Shown here piece after piece: positions 24,701 through 62,307 of a stretch of 64,000 nucleotides of DNA. The DNA is from Psammoneis japonica (taxonomy: Eukaryota). Below the pieces are notes generated by a model that saw only the letters and a list, made by a program, of their open reading frames with translations, ran no database searches and was not told the origin of the DNA. Position 1 is the first letter of the stretch; every line of letters begins with the position of its first letter. Both the position numbers and the translations under genes were made by a program. The stretch covers positions 310,001 to 374,000 of the forward strand of contig QPGO01000049.1 in assembly GCA_008632985.1 (NCBI GenBank), written 5' to 3'.

Positions 24701-25026
24701 AAAGGAACACAACATCATTTTCGGTTGTGCTGTCTGTGGCTTCTTGATCGCTCTGCATGGCTGGACTCTGAATTTTTCGACGTTTCATTTTTATATCCAA
24801 TTATGTTTACAAACATAAAATTTTGCGCGTACGCACGAAGCCGGACATAAGTCTTTCCCTCTTCATGCTTCATCATCCTTGAGGAAGTGTATTAAATTTT
24901 CAGTCCCACAGCAGTCCCGGCACGACAGAGCATCTTCTCCATGCGTCTGCAGAGGCTTTTTCACACAAATTCAAAATATCAGTCCCCAACTGAAACTTCA
25001 CACAACTAATTATCGCCAAATTCAAA

Positions 25027-27300: not shown

Positions 27301-28006
27301 TGTTCGAATGCGAACTACGAATGCTCCCTCAGCGCGTCAAGCATCAATGGAAGATGGAAGCAGAGTGGCGCGGGAAGTCCGAGATGCTTTCAGGGTGCTT
27401 TTGAGCAAAAACGACCGAGGTGGGTGAGAGCTGGGTGAAGAGAACGACGACAGTTGTGGCAGTCAACAGGTTCTTCGACACACCAACATTTTCCGTTGTG
27501 CGTTGCTATTCTCCACAAGGTTGCTGCTCTATGACGTATTCTCATGATGTGGTGGACCATACCGTACACAACAGGGCGACCGGGGACTGCACACCCAACC
27601 CGACTTCTTCTCTCTCTTGGAATGCAAAATTTTGAAATTTGGCGGGATATGGATTGAAACGTGACGGTTATCTCAACGAGCAAAGTTGTAAATTGTGCGA
27701 TTAATTTTGGCAATACATACTCGTTTCTTTTCCGTTGCAGAACAAAAAGTAACCGTTGAACTCAAATTCAGCCACAAAGTTCGAGATTTGGGATTTTCAA
27801 GCTGTAACACGAATGCCGTAGGCTCTTTGAAAAAACCATTCAGACAGCAATGAAGAAGTCCATTAAAATTCTAAATCCCGCAGCAGTCCCTGCACGACAG
27901 GAGGGTACCATACTCAAATAATACATCATGCACTCGCAGAGCGAGGTTGTGTCACAAATTGCAGTTCTCAACTCAATCTTACAATTTTTTCTTCTCCAAC
28001 TGCACA

Positions 28007-28579
28007 ATGAGATTCCTTTTGGCATCAATCACTGTCCTCACATCTTCACTTTTCATCACGTGCGAGGGTGTCGAACGCAGAGCTACCAAAGAACGCAACC
28101 TTGGGTCGTCGTCGTCGGATGAGGACAGATTTGTCGATCCGATTATCCTTTGGGCCAATCCATCTGTCGATGGTTGTCTTCTAGCCAAGGGAGAGGGAAG
28201 CAAGAGTAAGGTTATTCTCTCTAGTGGGGATTGCACCGGGTTCTTCCCTGATGGCGTCGACAGCATCAACAATGGAGACGACGCATTGTTCCTCCGCGCT
28301 GGCGGTATTGATGGCGACCTGTGTTTGCAAGCAGGGTACGGAAAGTCACTTCGTGGGGGAAGCAAGTTGCGACTCTTTCCATGTGAAAAGAATAACGTGT
28401 TCCAAAGGTGGAACCCGAACCTCCTCGATGAGCCGGGTCCCCTCTTTCTCAAGAGCAACAAGTACAATCATCTGTGTGTCACCCATCGTGGTGTGAAAGC
28501 AAACGTTGACGTCGACCCAATCATTCTCAAAAAGTGTGACCGTCTGCCAGAATCTCGCAAGGCGTGGAGCTTTGATTAG
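28007..28579 (+). CDS. Secreted ricin-B/beta-trefoil lectin-like protein, copy 2
   Basis: ATG at 28007 (MRFLLASITVL); highly similar to 25027-25578 over its full length. Confidence 0.7.
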   Translation: MRFLLASITVLTSSLFITCEGVERRATKERNLGSSSSDEDRFVDPIILWANPSVDGCLLAKGEGSKSKVILSSGDCTGFFPDGVDSINNGDDALFLRAGGIDGDLCLQAGYGKSLRGGSKLRLFPCEKNNVFQRWNPNLLDEPGPLFLKSNKYNHLCVTHRGVKANVDVDPIILKKCDRLPESRKAWSFD

Positions 28580-29181
28580 ACTGGGTAAGGCTCCACCGTT
28601 GCTTTCCAATGGCATAGTTGATTACCCTCACTTGTTTCGATACACAGTTTAGTCAATATTCGAATACCGACAAGGAGATCGCATGCCTGGTTAGCCAAAA
28701 TTTAGATTTCGTCTATAGATTGCATGCGCTAATAAAATAGCATAAAAGTATTTATCAAGCACCAGCTACACGTTGCAGAGCTCATGAAGAAACTCTTGTG
28801 CTTCTTGCATTCAGTCAATGCCGGTTGCTCATGAAAAGTGCTGAAGCTATGCGGCAAGGCGTGTCTTCATAATGTGATGCGCCATGGTGCCGTTCACCAT
28901 AGCATGTCTTAAGTGAGAATTGGTACGCATGAAACTTCATGCAGCTCGGGCCGTTGCGTTCGTAATGAACACCTACTGCTTAAAAAATTACTCCTCTAGA
29001 GCCTAGAACCTAACGAAGCAGCTAATAGTAATGGGTCTTTTCCCACCCATTGCATAGGCGGTTCTATGAGATTCCAGCAATCAATCGAAAAGGACCACGA
29101 CATGCTCTTCCGGTCTACCCCGGGGTAATCCCTCTCATAGCAAGGTTATAAAGAAGCAAAGCAAATAATTGACAGTCCGCT

Positions 29182-30830: not shown

Positions 30831-32019
30831 ATTGGGCGGAAAATGGTTCATTGAGTGCAGAGAAGCTGCCAACAACTCAGTTGAATGAACATTGAATGCT
30901 GAATGCCGCAGCCTTGATGTTGGTGCTGACAGAGTTCAACAGGAGGATGTGAGCCGCCACAAGGCAAAAGTCAAAAAAGCGCACACCTTGTCAAGTCGTG
31001 CCGCCCCTGGGCAAGGGCCTCTGCGCAAACATTGGGCCGTGTGAAGGATGCCGAGGGGTGTGGTCTGAAAAATGAGTTGGGCATGCTCACATTTTATCTT
31101 CATCACATAACATGGGTTTGCGGCATTTGGCGAACATCAATCGTTCTGCTGCCCACATGTGAAATGCCCCAGAAATGAACTTGCGCGGAGGCCCCTGCAC
31201 CGCGACAACTCTGCACACTGTCAAACCATTTCACCGTTCAGCACCCAAATGTCACCACACAAACACCACGGCAAATTGATGCTGTTCACCTGACAGGCTG
31301 TTGTGACTGTGCCCCCTCTCTTCCTTAGAAAGCAGGGGCACAGACCATTGCCACAAGTTCTGCATGAGAATTGTGTGCCCCTGGTTTGGGGGGGAATGAA
31401 TCGGTTTTTGCAAAATGTTGAGTTGGCAAGATTCGGTGAGTCAAGTGGTGATGATGGTTCTTGCAAGAGTGTTCATGCCACACTTCTCATTCATTGTTCA
31501 TCTCCCCCCTGAAGGCAACATGTGGACAACTCAATGTCATGTGAGAAAATGCGATGGACACATCCACGTCATGAACTGTGACAATTTCATTGTGAACAAT
31601 CATCTCATCTCCCACAGAAAGCAGATTTGCTGTGCTGTGAGGCAAAACTTCAGATCAGCAATTGAACTCCCAGAGGGTTTCTGTGGACACGTCAACCAGA
31701 GCTGACAGTGTTCTTCTCCCTTGATGGCCAAGCCAGCGGGCAGCTGATGTGATCCTCAAATGCACCGGTGCGATCCTTCAAAGAAGCAATTCGAGCTTTG
31801 GCACAAACCTTGTGCAGCTGTTGGTGCATCGAACAATGGACAATGAGCAAGGGCCATTGTGCCGTTGTGATTCTGCTCCAATGTGAGTCATCATTGAAGT
31901 GGAATTTTACATTGTCGTCGCATCCTGCTCTCACAAACACTTCACATTTGCTGTCTGCCCCCTTCTTGACACACGCGTCCAAGATGCCAGATGCTGTCCA
32001 TTGAAGGTCTGGGCACCAG

Positions 32020-32370
32020 TCCATTTTGAGAGCACTCATGAACATGAATTTCGTGTTTGGAATGTTTTGTTCTTCAGCCAACTCAGCAGCTTGTTTCACC
32101 TGATTGGGGCCAAGAGACATTCCAGTCACTTGAGAATTGGGCCTGAGGTTTTTTGCAAGATGACAGGAATTTCCTCCTGCTCCACACCCATCATCCAACA
32201 CCTTTGCTGATGAGTCCATTTCTGGACTGGTGCCACCGAGTTTCATCATTTCATCTGCAAAGTCACACTTGGCCTGAATGAAATCCTTCTTCTCATGCCC
32301 TGCCCCCATCTCCTCTTTGGTGCAGCATCCAAGATGGATGTGTTTCACCCCAGCAGTGCTTAAGGATGCC
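32020..32370 (-). pseudogene. Fragment of MPBQ/MSBQ (tocopherol/plastoquinone pathway)-type SAM methyltransferase, hypermutated
   Basis: HIHLGCC...AGHEKKDFIQAKCDFADEMM...KVLDDGCGAGGNSCHLAK...VTGMSLGPNQVK matches the recalled family pattern HIHLGYY...AGY.KK.FIQAKYDF..VLDVGCG.GGTSRYLAK..VTGITLSPNQV. Confidence 0.8.
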
Positions 32371-33787
32371 ATCTTTTCCAGAGCAGTGCAGCAGCTAAAT
32401 GCACCACGGCAACTTTCAGAAGCAGATGCAGCACGGCAAGGAAGCAGAAACAAAATAAATTGAAAACAACAGCCTGATTTCAACATCTTGTTTTACTTCT
32501 GCTCGGCTGGGCTGCAGCTGTGGCACCGTTTTCTCTGATTCATTGACCAAGGACGTTTGAAAGAACACCATCACATTGATGCATTTAAGATGTGATGAGA
32601 TTGAGAAAGGAGGCTGTGAAGGTTTGATGGCCTCATCATTCCCGCACATTGCGGTCAGGATCAACTTTTTCATTGCTGCAATCAGCTTGTCAATGTCTTT
32701 CTTTGTGTGAATTGCAGATGCTGTCATTTGCAATGCTGGTGCAGGGATGGTGTGCATGTGGCCTGCTGCATGTTGACCCATCGACACCATGGCTGCTCCG
32801 TTCTTCAAACAATCTTTGCAATTGAGCCAAAAAGGGCAGTGTTTTTGTCATCATCACAGAGGTCCTCCTCTCTTCAATGACCATTCTTTGACATGAAATG
32901 GGGTCCGATGGGCCACCGCTCACATCTTCAGACTCTTTCGTGTCCTTGGGCTCATGGTTGCTTTTCCCATTGTCTCTTGACGATTGGTGCCGCCACCACC
33001 ATCGGTCTCCTCATCCTCTGCTTGCAGCACTCGCACTGGCAATGACAATGGTCGCAGCACAATCGTCGTCGTCCTCGCCCTGATCCTTGGAGGAGGAAAC
33101 GAAAACAAACTCACAACTTGATGATGACGGCATGGATGATGCACCACTCCAACCAACCAAACAACAATAAAGCTGCATCTTGTCATCATGGTTGTCTGCC
33201 GGCACCGCATTGCACAGGGTGCGTGTGTCGTACTTTCCGCAAACAGAAACGGTGTCAGTTTTGGATGCACAGTGGGGCACCCTAATTCCAATTCAGGCGA
33301 TCCGACGATTTGTACTGTGTAGTCGACCAGTCCGATGTGGCGAAGAATCACAAAGAACAAGCAAACCGGCAGGTGTCTAATTACCTAATCTTTAACGGTC
33401 TAATTGCCAAAATTTAATTCAAACGAAGCTCACGTGCTAACCGGTGAAATCTTTTCTCGGCAACCGACACTCACGGCAACTGGGATTGATTGGGGGTTGT
33501 TAGGGTCTGAACAAAAGACACGCAAAGTTCGCAAAGTTCCTCATGCTGCTGGCGATGTCGAACACTCGGATGCATGAGGGGTGATGCAAAGGATGCTGCT
33601 GTTGAAATCGTCACAAAGGTCTGCAAGATTCACTGTGGCGATGTCCCGAAAGTTGACAGGAGCAGCGAGAACAAAGCTGGCTAAGATGAGGGAGATGATG
33701 CCTCATTGTGCCAAGAGACTCCAAGCTTGCAGTTGTGTACGTCACATTTGGGAGGCAAACTGTCATTGGAAATGACAGTTGTCTTAA

Positions 33788-35728
33788 CTAGCCAGGCACA
33801 CCTCCAGTCCGAACATGTGAAACATGAAGGGGTTCCACCGAGTGTTCCAGTTGTGATTGGCCTTCCATGTTGCTCCGAGTGCCAGTTGTTCTGGAAACAG
33901 CAATTGTGGTCTCCTTCTTCAATCCAATCTTCCCTTGCTTGGCAAGGTCCTTGACAATGTAGGCAACAACAATTGTGTTGTGCAGAATGTAGCCGCTGTC
34001 GAGAAGACCACCAACCACACGCATCAGCTGTTCCAAATCTGCAGAGTGTGTCTTGCCAACAGTGTTCTGCATGCATCGAAGTTGCCATTTGCCAGCATCT
34101 GGAACGAGGACAAAGAAGTCAAGGAAGGGCTGGCTGTTGTCTTCGGGGATGAACCACTGGGCCTCATTGGATGACTTGTCCTCATCTTTGATCGCGTCTT
34201 CTGGCAAACTCTGGTTAGCGGTGACATCCTGGACTGCAGCAGGCAGATTGTAAATCTTGCCTGTTGGCCATAACACCCTTGTTTTTTTGCTTGTCGTACC
34301 CATCATAACATGTGCGGGCTGTGCCCTTTGGCCCATGACTGCATGCTGCGATGCTGCCAGATCATGACAGTGATGTAAATGTACAGCAAAGTCGGCCTCA
34401 AAAATCTCACCTGGAGCACCGTTGACAAGATGTTCCTTCATCAGCGGACAAAACTCGAAGAACTTGTTTCGTGCACCAGTGTTGCGGCCTGCTGCATTGG
34501 CCAAGTAACTGGAGGTGTACAGTGCAACTTGCCCACCATCAGCAAGGCACCTTTGAAGAGCAGAATTCACAGCCTCGCAGTGCCTGTCACCAGCAGCTAC
34601 AGTTCTGTCACCCATCCTTTTGATGATGCTTTCACATTCATCCTGGATCTCTTCTATGGTGAAGTTGAAGAACCACCGTGCATTGATTCCGCAACAGCAG
34701 AACTTGCTGTCAACCAGGTCTTCCTCTGTCACACTTGATGCATCCTCTGTGTCAAGGGTCTTGCAGACTTGTTTCTTTAGTTCTGGGTCCTGGAGACCTT
34801 TGATGTGGTCTTGTCGAGTAAAGGGGCGCATGATTTTTTCCTCCACGTTGATTGCACGTCTAGCTTCTTCTTTCTTCGCGGCTGCTCCCAGTGATGAAAC
34901 GTGAATCACACGTCTCTTGCCTCTTCTCGATTGATGACATGCCACGTCACTTGCCCAGCCACAAGCAGCGGGGCCTTGGTTGGATTGTGCTGCATCTGAA
35001 ACATCAGCAGGGGCGTCCACGATTAACACCTCAGAATTCTCAAATACATCGAGCTCGAGAATGTCCGAAAGCTGTCCAGGCAAATCTTCAAAACCACAGA
35101 CGATGCCACCCTTAAATTGAAAGACCTCCCAGCTGTCGGAATTGGATCGACGACCCACCCAAATCACATCCTCCGTTGTCCCAAGATGCTCCGCCACGGC
35201 CCAAGCCAAGTTGCTCTTACCAGTGCCGGGAGCACCAATGAACTCGATGTTGAAGTCCTCCACCCCTTCATGTGAGTCCACCAATTGGTCAAAAAGTTCC
35301 TGCATCCCTTCACGTCCACAACAGCGAACACTGTCCGAGGCGCTGGGTGTCAAGATTTTAAACTTGTTGACCGTCAGATCAATGCACTTGTGTGATTCCA
35401 CCTTGGCATCGGCACTTGCATCTCTGATTTTCCTTCTCTTCGTGTGTGGCTCTTCAACTGCCAAGTCTGTTTTAGAAGCTTTCCATTTTCCGTCCCAGAC
35501 CTTCCATCTTCCCAAAACTTTGTTTGCAAGGGCGTTCGGGAGCCCGTCCGCAGTCAGAATTTCGTGCGTGAGTGTGCCAAACGAGTCAGCATCATCGCAT
35601 CCTTTGGGTTGGAGCATTGCAGCAGCTTCGAGGGCGTCTTTTTGCCTCATGCCAAATCCGGTTGTTTCGTTGGCTAACCACACCGCCAGCTCTTCGGGAT
35701 CACCAAATGGAGGCTTGTCATCACTCAT
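33788..35728 (-). CDS. Crinkler-like protein (N-terminal header, P-loop NTPase, C-terminal restriction-endonuclease-like domain); probably decaying
   Basis: Open 646-codon frame with Walker A GAPGTGKS, LIVD, G.NARWFF, GEIFEADF and LDF...MQNTVGKTHS motifs; only 5 Tyr, none in the first ~400 aa. Confidence 0.65.
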   Translation of the reverse strand: MSDDKPPFGDPEELAVWLANETTGFGMRQKDALEAAAMLQPKGCDDADSFGTLTHEILTADGLPNALANKVLGRWKVWDGKWKASKTDLAVEEPHTKRRKIRDASADAKVESHKCIDLTVNKFKILTPSASDSVRCCGREGMQELFDQLVDSHEGVEDFNIEFIGAPGTGKSNLAWAVAEHLGTTEDVIWVGRRSNSDSWEVFQFKGGIVCGFEDLPGQLSDILELDVFENSEVLIVDAPADVSDAAQSNQGPAACGWASDVACHQSRRGKRRVIHVSSLGAAAKKEEARRAINVEEKIMRPFTRQDHIKGLQDPELKKQVCKTLDTEDASSVTEEDLVDSKFCCCGINARWFFNFTIEEIQDECESIIKRMGDRTVAAGDRHCEAVNSALQRCLADGGQVALYTSSYLANAAGRNTGARNKFFEFCPLMKEHLVNGAPGEIFEADFAVHLHHCHDLAASQHAVMGQRAQPAHVMMGTTSKKTRVLWPTGKIYNLPAAVQDVTANQSLPEDAIKDEDKSSNEAQWFIPEDNSQPFLDFFVLVPDAGKWQLRCMQNTVGKTHSADLEQLMRVVGGLLDSGYILHNTIVVAYIVKDLAKQGKIGLKKETTIAVSRTTGTRSNMEGQSQLEHSVEPLHVSHVRTGGVPG

Positions 35729-38250
35729 GGTTGATTCCAATTGGTGGTGGTGGTTGTTCCAATGTCATGACGTTCTTGCGGAATGTCCTCCTCCTTCCGA
35801 GTCAGAGCAACCGGCAATTTCAATGGAAAAAAGCTGATTGCAGCTGATTGAATTTTAATGGATGACAATGGACCGGCCACGAACGAAAGCAGGAGAATTT
35901 TCGTTTCATTGCGACCACTCAGGTTCAAGGTGGTTGGTGATTGCAGACTTTTCGTGTCAGGCCAACCCCAACCGAGCGAAAAAAGAAAATGAAAAAGACG
36001 AAACAGCTCGAAAAGCTCGAACTCACCCGGATTTTCACCCTCGACTCTTTTTCAACTCGGCCGAAACACTCTCCATCGTGAGTCTGTGCGTTGACCGTTG
36101 TCGTGTGCGCGCACACCCAAAGTCTCCACACAGACGACTCTCGCGGAAGTGAGACAGACAATGTGCCAGGGTCGCATGCAGGTGATTTGTTGCCGTGCCC
36201 TCCTGGTGTGTTTCGTGTAGAATTCTCCGTAGAAAAGTTTTGTGCGCATGTAGAAACATGCGGGGATTCCGGAGGCATCGTAACAAACCGTCCGTCTGAC
36301 TTCCGCGAGAGTCTATGAGGAGACCTTCGTGTGCGTGCGAGCGCGCGCAAAGATCGGTCGATGCACAGACTCCATGGGCACAACATCGTACGAGCGATGG
36401 TGGTGTTTGCATGACATTTGTTTGTCTTCAACATGAATGTAGAAGACAAACCACAAATTTCAGAAAAATGCACCACACATCAACATCACCCGCCCACGCC
36501 GCTCGCCATCTCAATGTCAAAACAATGTCAAAGATGTTGTCCGGAACTGACGACGACTGTTTCAGGAAACATTTGTCGGTGTCAACATAAAGCCAACTGG
36601 GAATGCTGCAACCCTTTTCACTGAACATTGGAGGTGAGTTTAAGCTGACCAAAGTGGGAAAGACCCGGGGAAGCTCGTCGTCAACCTGACTCTCGTGCCG
36701 CTCGCTCTCGTGTTTCTTCAGAATGGCATGGTTGTTTGCAACGTTGAGCGTCATGACAAAGTCGGTGATGCCACATGCAACCATCTGTTGCTCCAAACGT
36801 TTTGTGCTGACTTTGAGACCGAGAGGGCGACAAGAACAAACAAGAACAATGTCCAAGATGTCGCGGCGGTGAGTTTGTCTCTTCTCAGTTGAAGTGAATT
36901 CGGCGCTTTCTCCTTGTCCCAGTTTTCAATGATCTCACCAACCTTTGCATCACTTGTTTGTTCTCTTACATTCTCTGATGTTGACAGCAACGCGTGTCTT
37001 GAATTTGCTCTCGTCGCTGGGCCAATTCTTCGTGTCCAACCGCATTTGCTGCCGACACGTGTTGCTGCAGAACAGTCAAAACCGCCCTTTCAACATCAAC
37101 GGGTGGGTGCAATGACATTCATTTAAGGGTTTCACCTGGTGCCCCCTTTCAAAGGAATGAGCAGAACTGAGCAAGGTCGATTTGCCTCTGACAAATTCTG
37201 GAGAAAGGTGCACCTGCAGCTGTTCGCGACAACATCTTCTTCAATTTCTTCCTGTAGCTAAATTAATTTTGACAAGTCTGCAAAATTAATTTAGCTACTG
37301 ATTGGTGGTTTTCAAGAACGGGGACGCATCGGCTCATTTTCCGTCATCGTTTGTCGGCTTCTCTCGTGTTTCAGTGCGAGGCGCACCATGCAGTCGAACT
37401 AGTCAAGTTCTTGCGAACACCAAATTTATTATCTTTTTAAATTCTATATAAAGTTGATTATGGAATGGTTTCTACGTTCTACGGGATGTTGTGCCCATAG
37501 ACTCACGATGGAGAGTGCGGCCGAAACGAAAAAAGAGTCCGACTCTTTTTTCACAAACCCGGAAGTGTGAAAAAAGAGAAAAGAGTGATGTGGGCCGCAT
37601 GCTGTCATACAATTCGTACATGCGTCTTGGTTTACGTAGGACACCAGTAAAGCAATCCAAAGTTCGCCTCACGCACCGCATCATCAAGTCGCCATGGCGG
37701 TCTGTGATTGTTTTTGACGACTTCTTTCAATGTCATGACTGTATAAGTAACACCAATTGATAATTTGAAATAGATATGATATATCTCTTGAAGGAACTGG
37801 TGAAGTATGTAGCAGTTCTTCTACAACAGACCTTTTGTCTTCAAATGATGTTGCCGGTCTTGATGTGCATCATAGAAAGTCGACACATAAGGTCCCTAAA
37901 GTAGATCTTTATGACACAGAAATAACCATACTGACTAATTTAGATACGACTTATTCAATGGGGCTATTCTTATGTTGTTTGATTTTAGATTAGGGGCTCG
38001 AAATGGCCCGAGAAGTGTACAAAAACTTTCCACTTGACAACCACTTAAGTCATCCCATTAGCCTGTTGTATTTGCACTGAACAAAAAAAGAAATAGCACC
38101 CACCGACTAAGAAAAAAATGGAGGTTCTAATGGTGTTATTCTCATTGTCATAAGGTAGAACTTCGATGCCGTTATGGTCGTCATCTTCACTGTCGTGTGA
38201 GGCCTCTCGCTTTGCTTATCATCAGCATGCCCAAGACACCCGGATATTTA

Positions 38251-50390: not shown

Positions 50391-52900
50391 GCATGCGACT
50401 GTCATGTGCATGTCTGTAATTGCACATTGTGTGTGTCAATCGCACCACATTCATGCATGCGCACGAAGGACAGAACGATCACACAGAGTTGATTGGATGT
50501 CGAAAATTGCAAATGCAATCGATTGACAATGTTGACATCTTGCGTGTCAATGGCAATTGCACCCAGATGATCTGTTGTCACAATTGCATTCTCCGAAAGG
50601 CCTTTTGTCTGCAGAAACAGCACAGAAGCTTTGGGCCATTGAGAACTCATTCGGAGAAACCAAAAATCACAGAACAAAATTTAATCTCACAATTTCCACT
50701 TTTTGCACTTTGCTCTGCTTTTGTTTGTGCTTGTTCTTCAAGCACAGTGCACCAGAGCACGTCTGGAACATGTCTGCCCATGGTGCACGGGTGCAAAAAG
50801 TGCTGTTTTTGCATCATTTGTTTTGAGCCGCTCACCATCGCAAGTCTGTGTGTCAACCAACATGCGCATGCTTTGCACACCCCATGCCCACCCACGCACA
50901 GAACAAACAGGCATCAGGAATGAACAGGAACCAGACAAAGCATGGACAAATTGCAAAAAGCATGGGGGAACTTTCTCACAGATTCTATGAGACAAATGGG
51001 TGACAGACAGACAAGTGTGACAGAAAAGGCCAATTTTTGTCATCCTCATGCTTTTTGTGCCACATTCGATGCTGACAATGGCGTGCTGTTGTCAATGCTG
51101 TTGACTGGTTTTTGTGTGACGAAACGCATCATGTGTGTCTTGTGGCAAGTGACAAGCATGGATGCAAGCCCATGTTGACCCTGGGTGCAGTGTTTGTGGT
51201 TAATTTCAGGGCATTGTTGTCACTGGATTTTTTTGCAATTTTCTGTGTGAATCATGCACAGCAAAAATGTGGGACATTGATGACAGTGGAGTCATCTTGA
51301 AATGACTGATTGGAGCCACCAGACAGACACCAGTGAGCCAAATGTTGTGCATCAGCTGCACTTGGCTGTCATGTTTGTGTTGTTGCTGCTGCACATGCCT
51401 GAAATCAGTGCAGATGTTGTTTTCATCCCCACATGGTTGCCATTGTTGCTTGTCATGTTGTGTCACATTTTCATGCATCTCGGTTGCATTTTTCGAATCA
51501 ACCTCATCTTTTTTTTTGAGGTTGTGTGCAGCTTGCAATTCTTGCATAAACCTTGTGCCAGCAAAATGCCAGGAAACTGGCATCTGTTGCCTGTTCATTC
51601 TTTCTGCAGCTGCCCCCGGTCAAGTCATGGACTCTCACACAGGAATCTCAAAATCCGCAAGAGCAACGGGGCACATTTCCCACCACACACATGACCCTGG
51701 TGCATTGGCTGTCTGAATTCTCTGAGAGTCAGTCTGTCAAGTGATGGGCTGGTGGGGTGTGCAAAGCATGTGAGTGTCGTCATGGAGAGTGGTTTTCAGT
51801 TTTTTCAGTTTGTTTTGCGTTGCCTGGGTGCCGCACACGGCATCGCCACTTGCTGTCTGTGCAGTGATTTCTGTCATGATTTGCACTTTTGTCTGTCCCT
51901 GCAAGCAGTCTGCCACACCACGGGTTGGCTGGCACTGGCATTGTTGATTTGGTGGGGAGTCTCTAGAGCCAGCTGCTGGCTGAAAAAGTCTGCTCATCAG
52001 TGCGTTTGGGGAATTTGCCAGTGCAACTCTGTTCAGGGTTCTTAAATTGCAGAATTTTCTGTCATGGTCAGTTCACAAAAAATTGTTACATTGCGAAGAA
52101 AGCGCAAGTGCACCATCATAAAAAAATGCGATTGCACTGATTTGGCAATCACACTGCAATCATGTTGTGATGCTGCCTCCTCCCGGCAGGGGCGTGCCCC
52201 GTGCGCCCTCCGCACAGGAGCGCCTGCATGATCTGGGTAAATTTCCAGCATCAATTTGGACCTTGATGGCAACCTCAAAGACACTGTGTAAGATGACACT
52301 GGAAACATGCATGGAAAACTGGCAGTGCATTCACTCGTGCTGCAGTTGTTTCTTTTGCACTGCCTTGTCCCAAGATGCAATTGTGGCAAGGAGAGGCAAA
52401 ATGAGGGGCGGCCATTGCTTCTTTCCATCTCTCTTGTTTCTCTTTTCTCAAGAGGTGCAATGTGGAAACGAGACAGTGCCAGTGGCCAGAGACTGCGTGG
52501 TGTGCAAAAAGAGCGGCGATGGTGTGGTGCCTCCGAAAAATGTGACGTGCATGCGTGACGCAAGATTCCACATTCCGAATTCTCACATTTGGCTCTCGAA
52601 AAGAGCTTGCACAATGATTGACAGACTCTTTCAGCACTGAAATGGACAGCTTGCCGAGTTCATTTTTGGTGTGCCAGTGCAAAGTTGTGCAGATCTGCAC
52701 ACACAGGTTTCTATGTGCATTTGCACTGAAATGGCAGTTGGCCCATCAGCTCATTCAAATTTGTGCAGCAACCCACCCGTGCATGCCGCACTTGCAATGG
52801 TGATGACACAACAGCATTGTTTGCACTCTGATGCTGCCTTTTCACTTCACATCTCCCTTGCCATGGAGTTTAAGAATGTAACTGACAATCGGTTCAAGAA

Positions 52901-53243
52901 AATGGCAGGTTGTGATCGGGTTGCAGGGGTTTTGTTTTGCCATGAAAAGATGCCGTTGGACCCATCAACATGACACACAATGGTCAGTGTTGACATTGAG
53001 ACGACATGTTGACCCCAATTGAAGCATCTTTGGCAACATTGTGGCACTGGCATGCAGTGTGGAAGACTCAGCAATGGCAGGTCGTGACCGAGTTACAGGG
53101 GTTTTGTTTCGCCATAAAAAGATGCCGTTGGACCCATCAACATGACGTGCAATGGTCGGTGTTGGAATTGCAACAATGCACTGATCCCATTTGAAGCATC
53201 CTCAGTGGTGTTGTGATGTTGGCATTCTACATGGAAGACTCAG
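52901..53243. repeat. Tandem repeat, 172-bp unit, two clear copies plus a degenerate continuation
   Basis: aatggcaggt.gtga...aaaagatgccgttggacccatcaacatgac starts at 52901 and 53073. Confidence 0.85.
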
Positions 53244-54312
53244 TGGTTCTCAATGTGGTGGCATGATGGTGGAGTTGGCTGGAGGCCAAGGAGGACTTAC
53301 CCTGAGTGTGTTTCTGTGGATGCAAGAACCGCAAATGATGCATTGGCCCCATTGGAAGTTACTTTAGCAGCACTGTGGCAAATGTGACCGGTGTGGATGA
53401 CTCATCAGAGCTCAAATTGGTGGCATGACAGTGAATTTAGCCTGATCCCAAGGAGGGCTTGTTCTGAAAAGGTTGCTCATCCAGGGACTGTGACTGGCTG
53501 CTTTGTCGTCCTTTTCACCATGCAGCAGAAGTTTAGAGGGATCTGCATTGTGGGCACAAACAAGTGATGTTTCCAAAAAGATTTGTGGTTGTAGACATCA
53601 ACCAGTCACATGACAAATCCATGACTGAAATAAAATGCTGGAGAGTTGTCAAGTCGGCGGCGTTGTCATCTTGTTGGACGAGCTAGAAGTCTCATCATTT
53701 GCTCTCCTACGGCAGAGAGCATTGATTGAATTGAACATCAACTTGATGTGGGAGACAACAGTCACATTGGTGGAGGAGTTGGCTGTGGTTGTCATTTGAG
53801 AATGATTCAAAGTGGGTGACGCAGGCCTCTGTTACGACCCAACAACATGCAAACAGCTGTGCAGTCTATGTTGAAGCTTCTGACCAGCTTTGAAGGCAAT
53901 TCATTTTGTCTGTCGACAGACCGACCATCTGTGTGTTGTGTGTGACAATGATGTTTTGGCATTTTTGCTTTACATTCACAGTGTGTCAGCAACGCCATTC
54001 GCTCTCTTTGTGCTTTGTGTTGTTCTTGTGTTGGAGCTCGCAGAGTTCGTGATGTTCGCACGCATGCATGAGAAACTGTCGCATGTGGAAACACATTGAA
54101 TTTCTGCTGGCATGCTGTCCTCGAAAAGTCCAACGGACGAGAGGGGCCTGTGACCGTTGGTCATCGTCACCCCACAGAAAAAACCGTTGAAAATGACCCT
54201 CTGACCTCGGGACGATTGTTTTCCCCGTTGCACCTCTCATTCTTCCGAAGAGCAAAGCAACAACTAGACAGTTTTAATCGCTGTCTCGAGGCTGAGGACA
54301 CCTTCAGCCACA

Positions 54313-56559
54313 TTGTTTGTTGCATTTGCTCGCAGGGACACTGCATTTGTTGTGGCAAACGTGCCACCACCACCAGGAGCAGGACAAGGACTGCCACCAG
54401 TGGCGAACCCAAATGCGGGAGGTCAACCGGCACAAGCTGCGGCACCTCACGCACACGTTGCACCGCAACCAGGGGCAACCCAACCAGCCCCACCAGTTCA
54501 TCTGGTCCCAGGAGGAGCTGGAGCACCGCCCCCACCGGCACAGCCAGTCGCTGCGCCACCCCAACAGCCACCGATGGTGCCCTTGCCAATGCCAGTCATC
54601 AACACATGCCAGGCCTGCTGCTCCACGATCAACAATGATCCGCACGGCAGTGAATGCGCCGACCCGATGTTGGATTTTGCAGCGATTGTAAATGGCAACG
54701 CAAGGCACGGGGCGAACGCACTTGCGGAACGAGTTGCGTCGGCCTCGACGCACAACATGCCCATGGCCATGGCACTCCATTGCCGCGACCCCAACGCAAA
54801 CGCGGTGGATCCGGGCCGCATCCAAATCTGCCATCGCATCACTCAGCACCCAACCACGGTCGTGGGGCCACCCCAGCCATGGGATGGTCAGAAGTTTGCG
54901 ATCGTTGGTGACCTGCACCAAGGACAGCACACCGTTGTGACTTTCCCGGATGTGCATTTTGCGTTGGCCGCACCAGGGACTTGGGTTCCTGCTGATGCAG
55001 CATCAGCGACCCATGTCACCGCTGCGCCCGATGGGTTACACCCGGCTGTGGCAGCGCACAACGCGGACTCGGAGGAGGTGCGGACGAGGGGGGCCATGTT
55101 TGTGCCTTTCGATTTAGTCAAGCTGCTCCTGCCAGAGCCGCTGACCCCTGAGGAGGCACACACTCGCGCATGTGGAGCGCTTGACGCAGCGAACAAAGTG
55201 GCTGATTGCCAGGCACTTCTGGATTTTCTTCGCGTCGCATGTGTTGTGACGCAAGTTAATGGCGAGGAGTCGGTGGTTTGCACGGAGTGGCCCGCTCTCC
55301 CGCAACCGCCTGACAAGCACCTGATTCGTTTTTTTGACCAACGCGTGCATCACGACCTCCCTGGATTTAAAACACAGGCTGCGCCGGGACCGCAGTTCCA
55401 GCCGGTTATTCACGCTGTCGACAACCTCACCGCGGAACAATGGCAACAGCGTTTGGACACCCAAGCCCGCCAGCAGGCTGCCGATCACGGAAAGACACCA
55501 GTGCAGTTCTACGGAGAACATGGTGTCACAAAACGTTTGGCTGCTGCACGCAAGACTGGACGGATCACTGCAGTGCAGAATGCTGTGGATGAGCAACGCC
55601 AGGCACAGAATGTGTGCTTTGAGGTTCCAATCTCAGTTGGCATGGTTGCCAAGCTCGTTCAACTCACATTGGCCGGACATGATAAAGATGACCTCACCCA
55701 AGGTGTCAATCCCTTCATTTTTGGACTCACCACTCCTCAACAGGCGGAACAGACAGCACACCGTGCGGCCATGTGCCGCCAGATTCACGGTGGAATGGGC
55801 ACGCCCTCCCTGTCCGACACTGTGGTCCTTGAAGCACCGGACGACGCGAAGGTTGCTGCCACTGTGCAGGCGGTTCAACATTCACTTGATGGACTCCGGG
55901 TGGTCCTGTCTGCGGCCTCAGGCGCCACCCACCTGGTCGTCCATTACCTCATGGACCTTCGCCGCTCCTTGGATGTTTGCGCAAACGATCTTGCACTGCA
56001 GATGATGCACTGCCCTGCACTGCCTGCAGATTTCCAGTGCTGTGTCCAGATCGAAATCCATCATTGGTTTAAAGATCAAGAATCCATGCATAATCCCGTT
56101 CCTTTCACGCCCAAGAATGTCATCTACGAGGCGGCCAAGGGTGCCATGAATTGGCAGCGTCCGCTGCCGATTGCCGTTCGACCTCAAGGCCCACCAACAT
56201 GCGGCCCGACGGGACCGCTTCAGCATCCGGGATCAACTCAAGCACCTGCACCCTCACCTGCTGGGCAAGCTCAGACTCCGGGCGACAATTCCATTGTTTG
56301 CAACGAAAACTACGATGACCGTTTTTCTGCTGTTCGTGACCGCCCAAACGTGCGCTCTCGTGAAGTCAAGCAGCGCTGTGCTCGCAACAACATTGCCTTG
56401 CCCGTTGACTTGAATGGCGCTGCCCGTTGCCTCCCCTGCCACATTGAGGGGCAATGCAACACCAATTGTGGTTCCCGCAATGACCATCACGGATGCCACA
56501 CCGATGCAAAGCAGGCTTCGCTCCTCGAGTGGGCCACGGAGCATTGGAAAACTGAGTGA
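54313..56559 (+). CDS. ORF1 gag-like protein of the YR retrotransposon (mutated)
   Basis: 748-codon frame with Pro/Ala-rich N-terminus and C-terminal Cys/His finger CLPCHIEGQCNTNCGSRNDH; true start unclear. Confidence 0.75.
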   Translation: MFVAFARRDTAFVVANVPPPPGAGQGLPPVANPNAGGQPAQAAAPHAHVAPQPGATQPAPPVHLVPGGAGAPPPPAQPVAAPPQQPPMVPLPMPVINTCQACCSTINNDPHGSECADPMLDFAAIVNGNARHGANALAERVASASTHNMPMAMALHCRDPNANAVDPGRIQICHRITQHPTTVVGPPQPWDGQKFAIVGDLHQGQHTVVTFPDVHFALAAPGTWVPADAASATHVTAAPDGLHPAVAAHNADSEEVRTRGAMFVPFDLVKLLLPEPLTPEEAHTRACGALDAANKVADCQALLDFLRVACVVTQVNGEESVVCTEWPALPQPPDKHLIRFFDQRVHHDLPGFKTQAAPGPQFQPVIHAVDNLTAEQWQQRLDTQARQQAADHGKTPVQFYGEHGVTKRLAAARKTGRITAVQNAVDEQRQAQNVCFEVPISVGMVAKLVQLTLAGHDKDDLTQGVNPFIFGLTTPQQAEQTAHRAAMCRQIHGGMGTPSLSDTVVLEAPDDAKVAATVQAVQHSLDGLRVVLSAASGATHLVVHYLMDLRRSLDVCANDLALQMMHCPALPADFQCCVQIEIHHWFKDQESMHNPVPFTPKNVIYEAAKGAMNWQRPLPIAVRPQGPPTCGPTGPLQHPGSTQAPAPSPAGQAQTPGDNSIVCNENYDDRFSAVRDRPNVRSREVKQRCARNNIALPVDLNGAARCLPCHIEGQCNTNCGSRNDHHGCHTDAKQASLLEWATEHWKTE

Positions 56560-56730
56560 GAATTCGGCAGCGGCATCGGTTCGGGGACCGACCACCGAGA
56601 GCCTTTTCATCTGGAGCCGGCGACGGCACCAGACCCGCCACCCCCACAGGCGGAGAATCTGTGTGCTCAGCAGAGCCATGGTCGTCCCACTCTTCGTGGG
56701 CAAACCATTGCAAACTCTGAGCTGGATAAA

Positions 56731-58750
56731 TTGGGCAAGCAAATTCTTAAGGATGCTCTTGCACTTCGTCAAAAAGGTCTCAGTTGCCTCCTTCGCCATC
56801 GCAGGAAGAGAGGAGACTGGGGTCAGCTCCGCAAGGCCGCAGGGCATCCAGCCCACAGGCTCTTGTGCCATTGCCGAACACGGGGAGCGCCCATCACGGT
56901 CGCCGATGCCCCGTGGACGGCTGAAGAGCTAGAAGCAAGTGTCATCAGGGGGCCACACAAGTCCACTTGTGAATGCATCGATTTTTTGCGCGAAGACATG
57001 CACGACTGCGTTGAAAAAGGTTTTTGGGTTGTGCCACCGTATGAGGAAGTGAAGAACGTTCCTGGTCTGCGCATTAGTCCGATGGGCGTTGTACCCCAAC
57101 ATGCCAGACGGCCCCGTCCCATTGTTGATTGCTCCCACTTTGGGGTCAATCAAGCCACACAGCCAAACGCCCACATGGGGGCAATGCAATTCGGCCGGAC
57201 ATTGGACCGTTTGCTTCGGCGCATCCTCCTCGCCAACCCGAAAAAGGGGCGAGTCTATCTCATGAAGATCGACCTCTCGGATGGCTTCTACAGGGTTTTC
57301 TTGTCTGAAGATCGTGCACCTTTGTTGGGCGTTTCTTTCCCACACTTGCCAGGCGAGCCACGCCTCGTGGCAACTCCGACATGTCTGCCCATGGGATGGA
57401 CTAATTCGCCACCAATCTTCAGTGCAGGTACAGAGACCGCGGCTGACTTGTCAAATCAGGCCTTGCTCCATAATGTCACAGCACCGCCACACCGATTGGA
57501 GCGACTCGCTGAGAGCCATCCACCGACACATCAACCGACACCGCCACCGGACCCGGCGCTCTCCGTCCCCGTTCCAGCCCAATCTGACCCACACCTCAAC
57601 CACTCTAAACGTCGGCGTCTAGCATGCATCGACGTTTATGTTGACGACTTCATCGGTGCAGCCCAGGGCGATGCGACCGCCCGCCGCAACGTGCACCGAG
57701 TTGTCATGCATGCCATCGACGACATCTTTCGCCCTGCCGATTCCCACGACTCGCCCACTCGCAAGGAGCCCACATCCGTCAAAAAGCTCCGCAAGGGCGA
57801 TGCAACGTGGACCACGCAGAAGGAGGTCCTTGGTTGGTTGATCGACACTCAGTCGATGACCTTGCGGCTAACACCACGCCGCCGAGAACGCCTTCACCAA
57901 ACACTGTGCCAGGACTTTCCCCGGAGCCGCCGCCACCCACTGTCCTCGATCACCAGAAGCTCCTGGGCGAATTGCGTTTGCTCGCCATTGCCTTGCCCGG
58001 AGCTCGAGGACTTTTCTCCGTTCTACAGGAGAATCTCCACCACGCTACACCCGATGCACGCCTCCGGCTCACGGAGAACGTGCACACCATTCTCGATGAT
58101 TTTCGAGACCTCTGTGCGACACTGGATGCACGCCCCACCCACATTCAAGAGCCAGCCCCGTTGGAACCCACTGTTGGGGGTTGTCACGACGCAGCCGGCC
58201 ATGGTGCCGGGGGCGTCCTGCTGCCAACTCCCACAGCTGTGCCACGAGCCACTCAACTCCGCACTGGCACCGGACGTGTCTGCTCTCACACACGCCTGGG
58301 CCCCATTGTGTGGCGCATGCCTTTTCCCAAGGACATGACTGCCAGCCTTGGCACCTGCGAGAATCCCAAGGGTCCCATCACCAACACCGACCTTGAGCTC
58401 GCGGGCAGCTTCATTCAGTCCTGCACCTTAGCGGATTGCTGTGACATCAGGGAACAAACTTTCCTTTCCCACACCGACAACCTCGGCACCATGTTTCAGC
58501 AACGCAAAGGAGCCAGCACGACCACAAAACCAGCCTCCCATCTCCTCCGGGGCCAAGCCCACCACCAACGCCATCACCGTTGTGTTGGCCTCCACGACCA
58601 CATCCCCGGCCCTCTCAACGGCGCAGCAGACAATGCTTCTCGCATGCAACGCCTCCCTGACTCTGATTTCTTGCACCATTTTGACTCTGCTCACCCACAG
58701 ATCTCCTCCTGGCGAATGTGGACCCCACCACCCGCGCTGCGTTCATTCGT
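56731..58750 (+). pseudogene. Reverse transcriptase / RNase H of the YR retrotransposon, frameshifted near 57930
   Basis: RISPMGVVPQ..RRPRPIVD, KIDLSDGFYR, LPMGWTNSPP, YVDDFIG and KEVLGW motifs; continues in the 57807 frame with DAAGHGAGGV, ITNTDLELAG, TDN and ADNASR. Confidence 0.88.
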
Positions 58751-59863
58751 GATCTCAGTGCTGTGCAGCATGCCATTGCCCACAGCGTCACTGCTTCAAG
58801 ATCCTCCACCGCCGATTCCCACTGGAGTCTCTGGTCCAACTTCTGCACCCAACTGGCCCTTGACCCACTCCTCGAAGACGTTTCCGACCCCGTCATCTAC
58901 CTTCAAGTCTTCCTGCATCGGTGCCGAACTGGCGCCATCACCCCCCGCGGAAATCCCATCCGCACACGCACCGCTGAGGATGCCGCACATTCAGTTGGGC
59001 AAACGTTTGCGGCAATGGGGACCCCAGACCCCCGACACACATCCCAAGGCCAGTTGGACTTCCGCCTTAGCCGACAAATTCGCTGTCACAAGAAAGAGGA
59101 TCCTCCACCCGACCGGGTCAAACCAGTCCCTGTTGCCATCCTCTTTTGGATCCTCCATGCCGCCGCAATCACACCCCACACAGGAACAAAAGCCATTGCC
59201 AGCATGATTGCGCTGGCTCACTTTTTTCTCCTTCGGCCTGGCGAATGCACCGCCACCCCATCCGACACCACCCCTTTCCGCCTGGCTGACGCACGGCTCT
59301 CCTTGGGCGGTGTTTACCTTGACATTTGGACAGCCACCGATGCCCAACTCGATGCCGCCACCTTCGCAACGCTTGCGTTCACTGATCAAAAGAACGGCGT
59401 CCACGGCGAAGTCATCGGTTTAGGCTGCTCCGGCCATCCCCAACTTTGCCCTGTCCTTGCTCTCGTTGAGTGCATCAAGCACCTCTGCAATCATGGAGCG
59501 CTCCCAGACGCCCCACTGGGAGTTTGTTTTGCCAATCATCAATGGCATTGTGTTTCACTGGCTGACATCTCCTCCGTGCTGTGCACCGCCGTCATTGCCA
59601 TTGGCCCTGCCAACCTGGGTTTCAACCCCTCCGACATTTCGGCCCGTTGTCTCCGCGCCGCCGGTGCCATGGCATTGCTTTGCGCCCACGTTGACACCGA
59701 CGTCATCTGGCTCTTGGGCCGGTGGCGATCAGATGAGATGCTTCGTCACCTTCATCTCCAGGCAGAACCCATCATGCGCCACTTCGCCAGACGCATGTTG
59801 GAAGGTGGAGATTTCGTCCTCCACCCAAACGCGGAGGTTCCCATTCATCTGGAACCCCCGTGA
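58718..59863 (+). CDS. Tyrosine recombinase of the YR retrotransposon; catalytic Tyr position reads His
   Basis: FFLLRPGEC, QKNG, CPV.A, ARCLRAAGA and LGRWRSDEMLRHLH motifs; overlaps the RNase H frame, as is typical of DIRS-order elements. Confidence 0.88.
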   Translation: MDPTTRAAFIRDLSAVQHAIAHSVTASRSSTADSHWSLWSNFCTQLALDPLLEDVSDPVIYLQVFLHRCRTGAITPRGNPIRTRTAEDAAHSVGQTFAAMGTPDPRHTSQGQLDFRLSRQIRCHKKEDPPPDRVKPVPVAILFWILHAAAITPHTGTKAIASMIALAHFFLLRPGECTATPSDTTPFRLADARLSLGGVYLDIWTATDAQLDAATFATLAFTDQKNGVHGEVIGLGCSGHPQLCPVLALVECIKHLCNHGALPDAPLGVCFANHQWHCVSLADISSVLCTAVIAIGPANLGFNPSDISARCLRAAGAMALLCAHVDTDVIWLLGRWRSDEMLRHLHLQAEPIMRHFARRMLEGGDFVLHPNAEVPIHLEPP

Positions 59864-60627
59864 TTCACCACCAGCCCGCCAGCCGGGCCCACCCACCCAC
59901 CCACCCAAGACTCGTGGCCCATTCCGACTCCACGTTGTTGTTGGGAGGCGCTGGCGGCCCTGCCGTCCAGCTTGGGATTTGGAGAGGCGTCATGTGCACC
60001 AGCGAAGCACTCTCCACTCCTGACCACCTGTCCCACTTGCTGCCCAGCCTCCCAATCCGGGTCGACCGAAGGACGAACGAGAAAAGCGGTGGCAGCCGCT
60101 GTCCTCAAAAAGTCCAACGGACGAGAGGGGCCTGTGACCGTTGGTCATCGTCACCCTGCAGAAAAAACCGTTGAAGATGACCCTCTGACCTCGGGATGAT
60201 TGTTTTCCCCGTTGCACCTCTCATTCTTCCGAAGAGCAAAGCAACAACTAGATGGTTTTAATCGCTCCCACCTCTCCCGCCCTCTGGCCCTGCCATCCAG
60301 CTTGGGATTTGGAGAGGCGTCATGTGCACTAGCAAAGCACTCTCCACTCCTAACCACCTGTCCCACTTGCTGCCTAGCCTCCCAATCCGGGTCGACCGAA
60401 GGACGAACGAGAAAAGCGGCGGCAGCCGCCAAAAATGAAACTCGACAAGCTGTCCATGCATTCTACGTAGCCCTAAACATTATAATACACATGATGATTC
60501 TTCAGCCAGGCTGGAGACTTCCCCCGATTGTTCATCAACTCGGTTGGTTGTTCAGAGTTGAAAAAAAACCTGGTGATTGTTTGACGATGCGAGTGGAGTG
60601 TCTGGCGCTATTTTCCACAACATCAAC

Positions 60628-61415
60628 ATGAGTGATCCTTTATCTTTTTCTTCCAGCATTGTCAGGGGAGATTTCGATCGAGTCCGAACCTTCCTCGAAC
60701 ACCGAGTCGTCTCGCTACCCTTTCACGCCACTTTATCTCGCCGTCGCACACTACGAAAATTGCAACAGCAACAATGGCAACATTGTCGAGCTCTTGTTGG
60801 AACATGGAGCTGATGTGAATAAACGAAATTTTGATAGTTCGAAATTTACACCGCTCCATGGCGCTGTTTTGTTTTCAGGGTACCAGCTTCGGTATCGCAG
60901 TTGTTGTTACAAGTATCGCACAATGCGCAGGTAGACTCTAGAGACAGCATGAATCGCACTCCTTTGCATTATGCTATGGTTTCCTATGGCGACAGAGGGC
61001 CTGTAGTAAGGTCGTTGCTACAGAATGGAGCCAACATTGATGCCATGGATAAAGACGGATGTACACCGCTCATTTTGCGTGCCGCTTAGGAAGGGAATGC
61101 ATGGCAGACATACTGTCGAAACAAGGCGCCAATATCAACGCCACAGACTCCAAAGGATTGTTGCCAATTCATCATGCGATTTCCAGGGGTGCAGACTCTA
61201 TTGTATTGCTCTTGATGAAAGCTCACTCGGATGATCTGTTGAAGGTTGACGACGTTCATCCGTGTCTGTGGGCGCACGCGCTTGCGACGGTCGGACACAA
61301 GACCGAACCGAAAAGACTTTCCTTGTCGTTTTCATTGCTTCGGGAAAAGCCTGATTTATTTGGGCACAAATCGAACACAAGGAAACGAAAGCATCCTGAT
61401 CGATTTGTTCCGTAG
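60628..61415 (+). pseudogene. Ankyrin-repeat gene with frameshifts and an in-frame stop
   Basis: TPLYLAV...LLEHGADVN, TPLHGA, TPLHYA...LLQNGANID and QGANIN..GLLPIHHA are spread across several frames; TAG at 61087-61089. Confidence 0.75.
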
Positions 61416-62307
61416 ACTTTTCAGAGATTTTGAAACATGTTCAATGTGTATTGTTGCAAGGCAAAGGGGTATCCATTACCTGTAGGCAGTGAAATTGTTG
61501 TGTATGAAGCCTCCTCTAGACATAGTTCTGTAATTCAAAAAGTAGTGCATTGATTTTATTGCGATCGACCTTTAAGCTACATGTGCCCGATGCGGAAAAA
61601 GCTAGGATAGAGACCACGAGATCTGTTGCGCACGTTGCGTTATTTTACGGAGTTATCCATGCCGCGCAAACCACATGGCTTGCGCAAAACTTATTACCGA
61701 AGAAGCTGCTTGCAAGTCCGAGATGCTGATTGCATGTGTAGACAAGCGAATGAAACAGAAGAAGGGAAATTGGTGGTTTGGGCGTTTTCCTGTTGCAATT
61801 GCAGGTCACAGTGGAGGCTTAGTAAAGGACAAAATCGCTCACGAAAAGACGGAAAGAAGCCATCTATCGTTTGGCTTCCGTGATTGTCCTACGTAATCAG
61901 TCTCTCCAACTCCTTGCTTCTGTCGCACGCTTCAGGCTTGTGGCGTTGCCGCTAAATAAGGAAGACTTTGGAGAATGACAGAACCCATTGGGCATTTTCA
62001 CCGGCTTCTTCATACAAACATGCCCATCTGATTTGGAACTCATGATAAGCAGAGGGATCAGTTCTCTTTGCCAAATGCAAAGAATCTGACTTATGGCGTA
62101 ACGAACTCCATTTCAGTCTCTTAACCATCTTCCCAAGCCATGTCTCCCTGTCATCTGCGTCATCCTATATCCCCTCACATTTCATACCTCATTGATCTAA
62201 GAAATGCCAAAGCTTCTCTCGTCTTTACCGCACACAGTGAAATGATAACTCGTCCGCGCTGCCTTGATCTTCCGGCGCATAGGTTCCTGTCAAAACGAAA
62301 AGTTTCA

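Follow-up and report, generated by a model that had tools for sequence, protein, structure and literature searches.

Split direct repeats at 59956–60429 of the window, the whole stretch of 64,000 nucleotides that was analysed, form the 3' end of a retrotransposon, and their copies are no longer identical. The question that this locus raises is which mutational process separated the copies, and in which direction it ran. A preliminary description had proposed that nearly all of the differences arose by two changes, TA to CA/TG and CG to CA/TG, in repeats that were identical at insertion. For the element at 54114–60429 this initial identity is an assumption, taken from the A1-B1-A2-B2 definition of split direct repeats in the available text of PMC4157794 and from two relatives (L027 and L029) that share the repeat layout of 54114–60429 and have B pairs that are 100% identical.

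The region 59956–60429 is the B1-A2-B2 tail of a dead 6.3-kb Ngaro-like tyrosine-recombinase retrotransposon that occupies 54114–60429 on the forward strand. The element starts with the left terminal repeat A1 (54114–54282, 169 nt), which matches A2 at 96% and has a boundary that is uncertain by 2 bases. Next comes ORF1 (54268–56559, 763 codons), in the gag position and with no Pfam match. A pol-like ORF contains the reverse-transcriptase (RT) part (56560–57930), for which Pfam RVT_1 just missed its cut-off (E-value 1.7e-6, 28.3 bits, cut-off 29.6), and continues in another frame (57935–58745); both frames align end to end with homologues of about 800 amino acids, and a single frameshift near 57930–57960 breaks the ORF. 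The RT ORF has 1196 homologues at E-values of at most 0.001, the best of which is 64% identical, and some of them carry PF00078. The tyrosine recombinase (YR) ORF (58685–59863, 392 codons) is inactivated, with the catalytic Tyr now a His (CAC at 59747–59749). Downstream of it lie the internal copies B1 (59956–60099) and A2 (60098–60266), the latter a repeat of A1, and the right terminal repeat B2 (60286–60429), with a spacer of 19 nt between A2 and B2.

The 392-codon ORF has no Pfam match and no PDB sequence match, and its assignment as a tyrosine recombinase is settled by the predicted fold. An AlphaFold model built with 33 homologues (pLDDT 76.5) finds its best folds among Cre recombinase chains, which give TM-scores of 0.5–0.65 (4crx_A, E-value 1.2e-6, TM-scores 0.51/0.60). 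The ORF has 983 homologues at E-values of at most 0.001 among 8000 candidates scored, the best of them 71% identical, and retains the C-terminal consensus ...GRWRSDEMLR-Y-LH, in which LRYLH reads RHLH in the window.

A methyltransferase domain separates DIRS1 and PAT elements, which have it, from Ngaro elements, which do not. The four ORFs of this heavily mutated copy show no match to a Pfam methyltransferase, and the element is probably Ngaro-like, a class assigned by its layout and by the missing match rather than by phylogeny. The Ngaro/PAT-type elements outlined in the available text of PMC4157794 have the same order of gag-like, RT and YR ORFs, the same B1-A2 internal repeats downstream of YR, and the same correspondence of A2 with A1 and of B2 with B1; the element described here differs in its 19-nt A2-B2 spacer and in being dead.

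In contigs of the public run X1 the element is missing and 54112/54113 is linked straight to 60429/60428, and a contig of another copy in the run X2 departs from the window sequence at 60430, which together fix the ends of the element. A 26-nt inverted repeat (85%), at 52642–52667 and 60432–60457, brackets older repeat DNA together with the retrotransposon. Given this bracketing repeat and the X1 contigs in which 54112 is followed directly by 60429, the insertion target of the retrotransposon seems to have been an older high-copy element that carried terminal inverted repeats. The mean word depth in X1 is 1744 in the left flank, in the high-copy range, and 52 in the right flank.

Alignment of B1 (59956–60099) with B2 (60286–60429) over 144 positions yields six differing positions, transitions only, and reproduces all six of the differences in the preliminary description. 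Three of them set CG against CA or TG: 59965 G/60295 A and 60004 G/60334 A, with CG in B1 and CA in B2, and 60090 T/60420 C, with TG in B1 and CG in B2. At the other three, B2 has kept a TA where B1 reads CA (60000 C/60330 T), TG (60022 G/60352 A) and CA (60045 C/60375 T). A1 (54114–54282) and A2 (60098–60266) differ at seven of 169 positions, namely a single CG/CA difference, a single CG/TG difference, two adjacent doublets in which CA stands against TG (54173–4/60157–8 and 54269–70/60253–4), and an A/G difference in an AAA context at 54192/60176. The four A1/A2 differences that were earlier said to fit the pattern are present, and the one that had been set aside (gaaaat/gaagat, the A/G in AAA) indeed falls outside it. 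There is no transversion among the 13 differences of the A and B pairs, and 12 of the 13 lie at pyrimidine-purine steps, which hold 131 of the 313 repeat positions (41.9%; binomial P = 2.3e-4).

Since two repeat copies alone cannot show the direction of a change, homologues were used to polarise the changes. The comparison comprised 78 homologues (33 for YR and 45 for RT) and 431 codons that agree in at least 80% of them; a single base change was inferred per changed codon and counted against the non-synonymous transition opportunities in each context. Transitions from TpA to CpA or TpG were found at 11 of only 26 opportunities, relative to homologues that are at most 71% identical, and some of these changes may predate insertion. 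Transitions at CpG took 17 of 158 opportunities. The opposite changes were absent, from CpA/TpG to TpA at 0 of 104 and from TpG/CpA to CpG at 0 of 98, and the remaining contexts gave 0 of 251 for other C/G sites and 1 of 198 for other A/T sites, so that a single transition falls on the 547 opportunities outside TpA, CpG and the class from CpA/TpG to TpA. The test also returned 7 transversions and 10 multi-step changes. TpA accounts for 11 of the 12 inferred A/T transitions (11/26 opportunities versus 1/296). By Fisher's test, TA to CA/TG differs from its reverse with P = 2.7e-9, TpA from other A/T sites with P = 1e-12, and TpA from CpG with P = 2.5e-4; cut-offs of 0.7, 0.9 and 0.95 repeat the picture obtained at 80%. 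Both directions that had been proposed from the repeats are thus borne out, TA to CA/TG by the 11/26 against 0/104 and by a TpA odds ratio below that of all 80 relatives (see below), and CG to CA/TG by the 17/158 against 0/98.

The events divide almost evenly between the strands, with 6 T>C and 5 A>G at TpA, and the odds ratios of CA and TG are alike, which corresponds to an equal enrichment of the two products. Relative to other sites, rates derived by hand from the codon counts are about 360-fold for TpA and about 70- to 74-fold for CpG, or about five times higher per site for TpA than for CpG. The estimates of TA loss differ, at about 77% from composition and 42% at conserved codons. Tyrosine codons illustrate the outcome: at a cut-off of 0.7, 12 Tyr are conserved among the homologues, of which this copy retains 2 and has Cys in place of 6 and His in place of 4, and the catalytic Tyr is among the 10 lost. 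The codon at 58692–58694 encodes Tyr in the homologues and reads CAC in the window and TGT in two other genomic copies, and CA/TG doublets can therefore descend from TA and not only from CG.

The loss of TpA is specific to the copy in the window. Among 80 related elements from metagenome contigs, the TpA odds ratio ranges from 0.38 to 0.88 (median 0.64), with CA/TG at 1.15, CpG at 0.88 and a GC content of 0.55. The copy at 54114–60429 has a TpA odds ratio of 0.15, lower than in 80 of 80 relatives, with CA/TG at 1.42, CpG at 0.80 and a GC content of 0.586. As the relatives combine a GC content of 0.55 with TpA at 0.38–0.88, GC-richness is a trait of the family and TpA loss is not. The differences between repeat copies in five metagenome relatives (n = 53) comprise 24 transversions, 18 other transitions, 8 of the CpG type and 3 of the TpA type, and this mixed spectrum assigns the signature to the host rather than to the element family.

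The bases that flank TA determine how readily it is lost. Survival of each NTAN context in the element, expressed relative to the 80 relatives and based on small counts, is lowest for ATAT (0), ATAC/GTAT (0.05), ATAG/CTAT (0.05) and GTAC (0.12), intermediate for CTAC/GTAG (0.17), GTAA/TTAC (0.18) and ATAA/TTAT (0.40), and highest for CTAG (0.46), CTAA/TTAG (0.64) and TTAA (1.04). RTAY is lost first and TTAA is spared, and NTAN survival follows the same order in the old domains of the window.

The repeats conform to this rule. The TAs of B2 at 60330, 60351 and 60375 stand in the slow contexts CTAG, CTAA and CTAG, those that survive in both A copies are CTAG and TTAA, and the two A doublets, if derived from TA, would have been CTAC and ATAG, which are fast contexts. 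Context by context, the repeats have thus lost TA much as the element has over its full length, which fits a loss after insertion, for few sites and with the TA origin of the doublets presumed. It had also been remarked that the intact TAs are all in B2, nearest the domain edge. Their location in B2 stands (3 of 3), and an effect of the edge was rejected: the surviving TAs per kb, from the left of the element, number 3, 8, 7, 12, 4 and 3, followed by 5 in the last 430 bp. Given a same-copy chance of P = 0.25, the absence of a gradient along the element and the slow contexts of the B2 TAs, the remark carries no weight.

Beyond the element, the window is a mosaic. A map in steps of 500 bp shows seven depleted stretches with 0–9 TA per 500 bp, where 18–44 are expected. 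These are a domain at 1–2000, with 3 TA in 2000 bases and a partial loss of CpG; an older domain at 8500–15500, with odds ratios of 0.09 for TpA and 0.18 for CpG and a less depleted island at 11501–12000; a stretch at 19001–19500; a domain at 22000–24500 (TpA 0.08, CpG 0.15); a stretch at 31000–33000; a partly depleted stretch at 33500–37000; and the TpA-depleted, CA/TG-enriched domain at 38500–60457, which ends with the element and the 26-nt inverted-repeat remnant. TpA odds ratios are 0.02–0.2 in the transposon-rich stretches and 0.5–0.7 in genes and spacers. The older stretches reach TpA values down to 0.02–0.1, and the oldest have CpG at 0.07–0.3 and CA/TG at 1.7–2.0. By contrast, the younger stretches (the element, 1001–2000 and 35501–37000) have lost TpA and little CpG, from which it follows that TpA goes before CpG. 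The right edge of the last domain is sharp, with no TA from 60376 to 60463 and then six in 60464–60486, and falls just beyond the end of the element and the remnant at 60432–60457, which is an inverted copy of 52642–52667.

Duplicated DNA within the window provides a further comparison. In duplicates that lie inside depleted domains, CA/TG doublets make up 19 of 55 and 8 of 31 difference blocks, compared with 1 of 157 in a duplicate in normal DNA, and the process therefore works in place. The duplicate in normal DNA, which serves as an internal control, is a 1.1-kb direct duplication (24974–26067 and 27956–29040) with 79.5% identity and normal composition, in which 87 of the 157 differences are transversions.

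The erasure of TAA and TAG accounts for the long overlapping ORFs of the element and the old domains; these ORFs lie in several frames and on both strands, 51 ORFs of at least 80 codons overlap 53000–62000, and gene finders would over-call such TpA-erased regions. Twelve ORFs of the old domains gave no credible Pfam family.

Several other ORFs were noted in the window. At 4149–7412, an ORF of 1087 codons with normal dinucleotide content has a bacterial-type DUF2345 domain (E-value 3e-27) and is made up of a 153-bp coding repeat in 15.7 copies (86% matches); the opposite strand of this interval carries an ORF of 986 codons. The segment 27001–27500 has normal CpG and only 2 TA against an expectation of 28, and lies in or near the 5' part of a tRNA (guanine-1) methyltransferase ORF (26401–27336, reverse strand). 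A class-I methyltransferase ORF (31692–32492, reverse strand; Methyltransf_31, E-value 2e-9) lies in a TpA-depleted domain with 1–4 TA per 500 bp; it may be a host gene or transposon cargo. An intact ORF of 658 codons (33788–35764, reverse strand), with a weak P-loop or viral-type helicase signal (PF00910, E-value 0.024) and 131 representative homologues (best 50% identity), stands in a stretch that has lost TpA and not CpG, and is possibly a recent insert of virus-like or mobile nature. The codon test on this ORF, in a partly depleted stretch (63 representatives, 108 conserved codons), gave one TpA and one CpG transition, too few to count, besides two transversions and one multi-step change. 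To the right of the domain edge, an ankyrin-repeat gene with normal TpA (60632–61415) is split over three frames, which could reflect short introns or frameshifts. For the RIO2 kinase gene of the window, the closest relatives that carry a species name come from diatoms, with 67% identity to a Fragilaria protein and 80% to the best match without a name. The host is a diatom-like eukaryote, a stramenopile.

The explanation that best accounts for these observations, and which we regard as very probable from the sequence comparisons, is that the repeat copies in the tail of a Ngaro-like element at the edge of a transposon-rich domain have diverged where they stand, through two transition processes that each act in one sequence context. 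The first and faster one would convert TpA to CpA or TpG, an A:T to G:C change at 5'-TA-3' on either strand, and would have removed about three quarters of the TA steps of the element and nearly all of those in the older neighbouring DNA. The second would be the familiar decay of CpG to TpG or CpA, presumably through deamination of 5-methylcytosine. The sequence comparisons establish the differences and their contexts, the direction of change, its strand symmetry, its confinement to transposon domains, the order in which TpA and CpG are lost and the flank rule; the chemistry is a proposal. As put forward for the alga Bigelowiella natans, the first process may be an enzymatic deamination of adenine to hypoxanthine in DNA, targeted to chromatin or to foreign DNA, a proposal to which we give slightly less than an even chance. 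Because CpG and TpA are lost in shared domains, one mechanism instead of two could be responsible.

A different chemistry with the same signature would be T:G-mismatch repair. Thymine and 5-methylcytosine both offer a methyl group 5' of a mismatched G, and very-short-patch repair depletes CTAG in E. coli. A repair activity that guards methylated CpG in these domains could also "correct" to C:G those replication errors that set a G opposite the T of TpA, and in this way fix TA as CA/TG. The shared domains of TpA and CpG loss, the strand symmetry and the restriction to transitions are all consistent with it, as is the likeness of thymine and 5-methylcytosine at the mismatch, its link to the depleted domains being one that we infer. 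However, TpA is lost faster, also where CpG is near normal (1001–2000, 35501–37000 and the element, with CpG at 0.80), and a repair strong enough to erase TpA should protect CpG, yet CpG in the old domains has fallen to 0.07–0.3. We consider this explanation unlikely.

A second alternative places the changes in RNA, with ADAR-like A-to-I editing of the element transcript before reverse transcription and inheritance of the edited bases at insertion. The element is a retrotransposon, and ADAR-type enzymes favour a 5' U, as cited in the available text of 10.64898/2026.01.13.699255. Editing of the sense strand, however, predicts A>G only, and the observed 6 T>C to 5 A>G, with CA and TG equally enriched, is a strand symmetry that argues against it. 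Moreover, the same signature extends to the DNA around the element, to tandem duplicates and to other parts of the domain that are not retroelements, and the match between per-context loss in the repeats and in the whole element speaks for change after insertion, which leaves RNA editing very improbable.

Assembly or base-calling artefacts restricted to repeats were considered against the data of the run X1. Error-free Logan contigs of X1 cover at least 54973–55449, 59311–59774 and 60395–60800 (10 of 542 pieces listed); the contig at 59311–59774 is exact and carries nine inferred changes, the lost catalytic Tyr among them, and that at 60395–60800 includes the difference position 60420. At 60295, the A of the window has about 173 of a depth of 758.4, and G, in eight contigs from other copies, has 585.3. 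Contigs of other copies give a direction for four places, with G at 60295 and 60107, A at 60176 and CA, like A1, at 60157–8. Among the variant places obtained from contigs, 40 of 1055 are listed, and 60330, 60352 and 60375 lie outside those 40. The runs X2 and X3 have next to no coverage of the stretch, and X1 does not count as independent support, since it may be the source data of the assembly itself; the read support for the 13 repeat differences is accordingly partial. In favour of an artefact, X1 contains only 65% of the 31-mers sampled from the stretch, and at 23 of the 40 listed variant places (56235–58861) the letter of the window occurs in none of the aligned contigs. The exact contigs over 54973–55449 and 59311–59774 count against it, and so do the halt of the signature at transposon ends, the sparing of TTAA and the TpA values of 0.5–0.7 in genes, none of which an artefact would produce; the probability of an artefact is minimal.

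Ordinary C-to-T decay alone, by which B2 would have gained its three TAs from CA/TG, as in repeat-induced point mutation (RIP) or non-CpG methylation, with nothing special at TpA, would agree with differences that are all transitions and with C to T as the commonest spontaneous change, but it is scarcely credible, as the gain in B2 is ruled out by the 0/104 against 11/26 at conserved codons, the domains have almost no TpA left where this decay would have enriched it, and conserved Tyr codons have turned into His or Cys.

The preferred reading, with its two processes acting in place, has a close counterpart in mutation-accumulation lines of B. natans (Mettrop et al., bioRxiv 10.64898/2026.01.13.699255). 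According to the available text of this preprint, two integrated viral regions mutate about 1000-fold faster than the rest, and 230 of 231 mutations in the viral regions are A>G or T>C, all of these at TpA and leading to TpG or CpA. The hypermutation arises de novo and in some lines only, TpA-poor and CpA+TpG-rich clusters contain reverse-transcriptase and DDE genes, and the enzyme that the authors put forward is an ADAT2-like adenine deaminase acting on DNA. As far as that text goes, both systems change A/T to G/C at TpA only, with TpG and CpA products according to strand; both affect foreign DNA against a normal background, here with genes at 0.5–0.7 and domains at 0.02–0.2; and both leave TpA depletion with a gain of CpA+TpG as the long-term trace. 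The preprint describes a chlorarachniophyte and viral regions; the host here is a diatom-like stramenopile, and the targets are a retrotransposon and old transposon debris. The depletion is deeper here, with odds ratios of 0.02–0.15 versus 0.45 for the B. natans giant-virus region, and it is accompanied by a loss of CpG in the same domains and by a flank rule, whereas the main text of the preprint, in the portion available, is silent on CpG, flanks and diatoms. The evidence from B. natans consists of de novo mutations and that presented here of sequence comparison. TpA-directed A:T to G:C hypermutation has one prior report, this 2026 preprint on a rhizarian alga, and the present case is a second and deeper instance, in a new lineage and on retrotransposons. 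A literature search, with most subscription journals outside its reach, yielded nothing comparable for diatoms, where hypermutation directed at TpA is concerned.

Other known systems share part of these features. Like the process described here, fungal RIP hypermutates repeated or foreign DNA by transitions at one dinucleotide, which disable the genes of transposons and are recorded as a dinucleotide scar. RIP converts CpA to TpA and enriches TpA. The present case is its mirror image, as it consumes TpA and generates CpA/TpG, with RIP-type changes at 0 of 104 opportunities. Decay of CpG through 5-methylcytosine agrees with the 17/158 transitions at CpG versus 0/355 at other C/G sites and with CpG at 0.07–0.3 in the old domains; this decay, which is recognised here by its sequence trace, explains about half of the repeat differences and no TpA loss. 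ADAR hyper-editing and the TadA/ADAT2 deaminases likewise change A to G next to a 5' T or U, and here the change affects both DNA strands, in place, in double-stranded chromosomal DNA.

A scar of this kind in a diatom-like genome suggests that the process is not limited to one species, and here the scar lies on retrotransposons, is nearly saturated, ends sharply at the domain edges and follows a flank rule. TpA depletion can serve, at little cost, to mark silenced foreign DNA throughout a genome, and it may explain how old transposons escape homology searches and why stop-poor long ORFs occur in all frames. With TpA changing about 360-fold and CpG about 70-fold faster than other sites, the dating of insertions from their repeats needs correction. 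The NTAN motif defines a substrate for an enzyme hunt, and genetically tractable diatoms exist in which the mechanism would be testable if the scar is present in them. More tentatively, and at rather less than even chances, diatoms, like B. natans, may possess a defence by DNA editing, targeted through chromatin, in which the adenine of 5'-VTAB-3' is deaminated in either strand of transposon or viral DNA that has been silenced; it would leave TTAA immune, act in place after insertion and several-fold faster than the decay of 5-methylcytosine, and together with this decay would drive both palindromic pyrimidine-purine steps, TA and CG, into CA/TG. If this is true, "reverse RIP" would amount to a eukaryotic genome defence that is old or has evolved repeatedly across the SAR lineages, and any assembly would reveal it as TpA-free domains.
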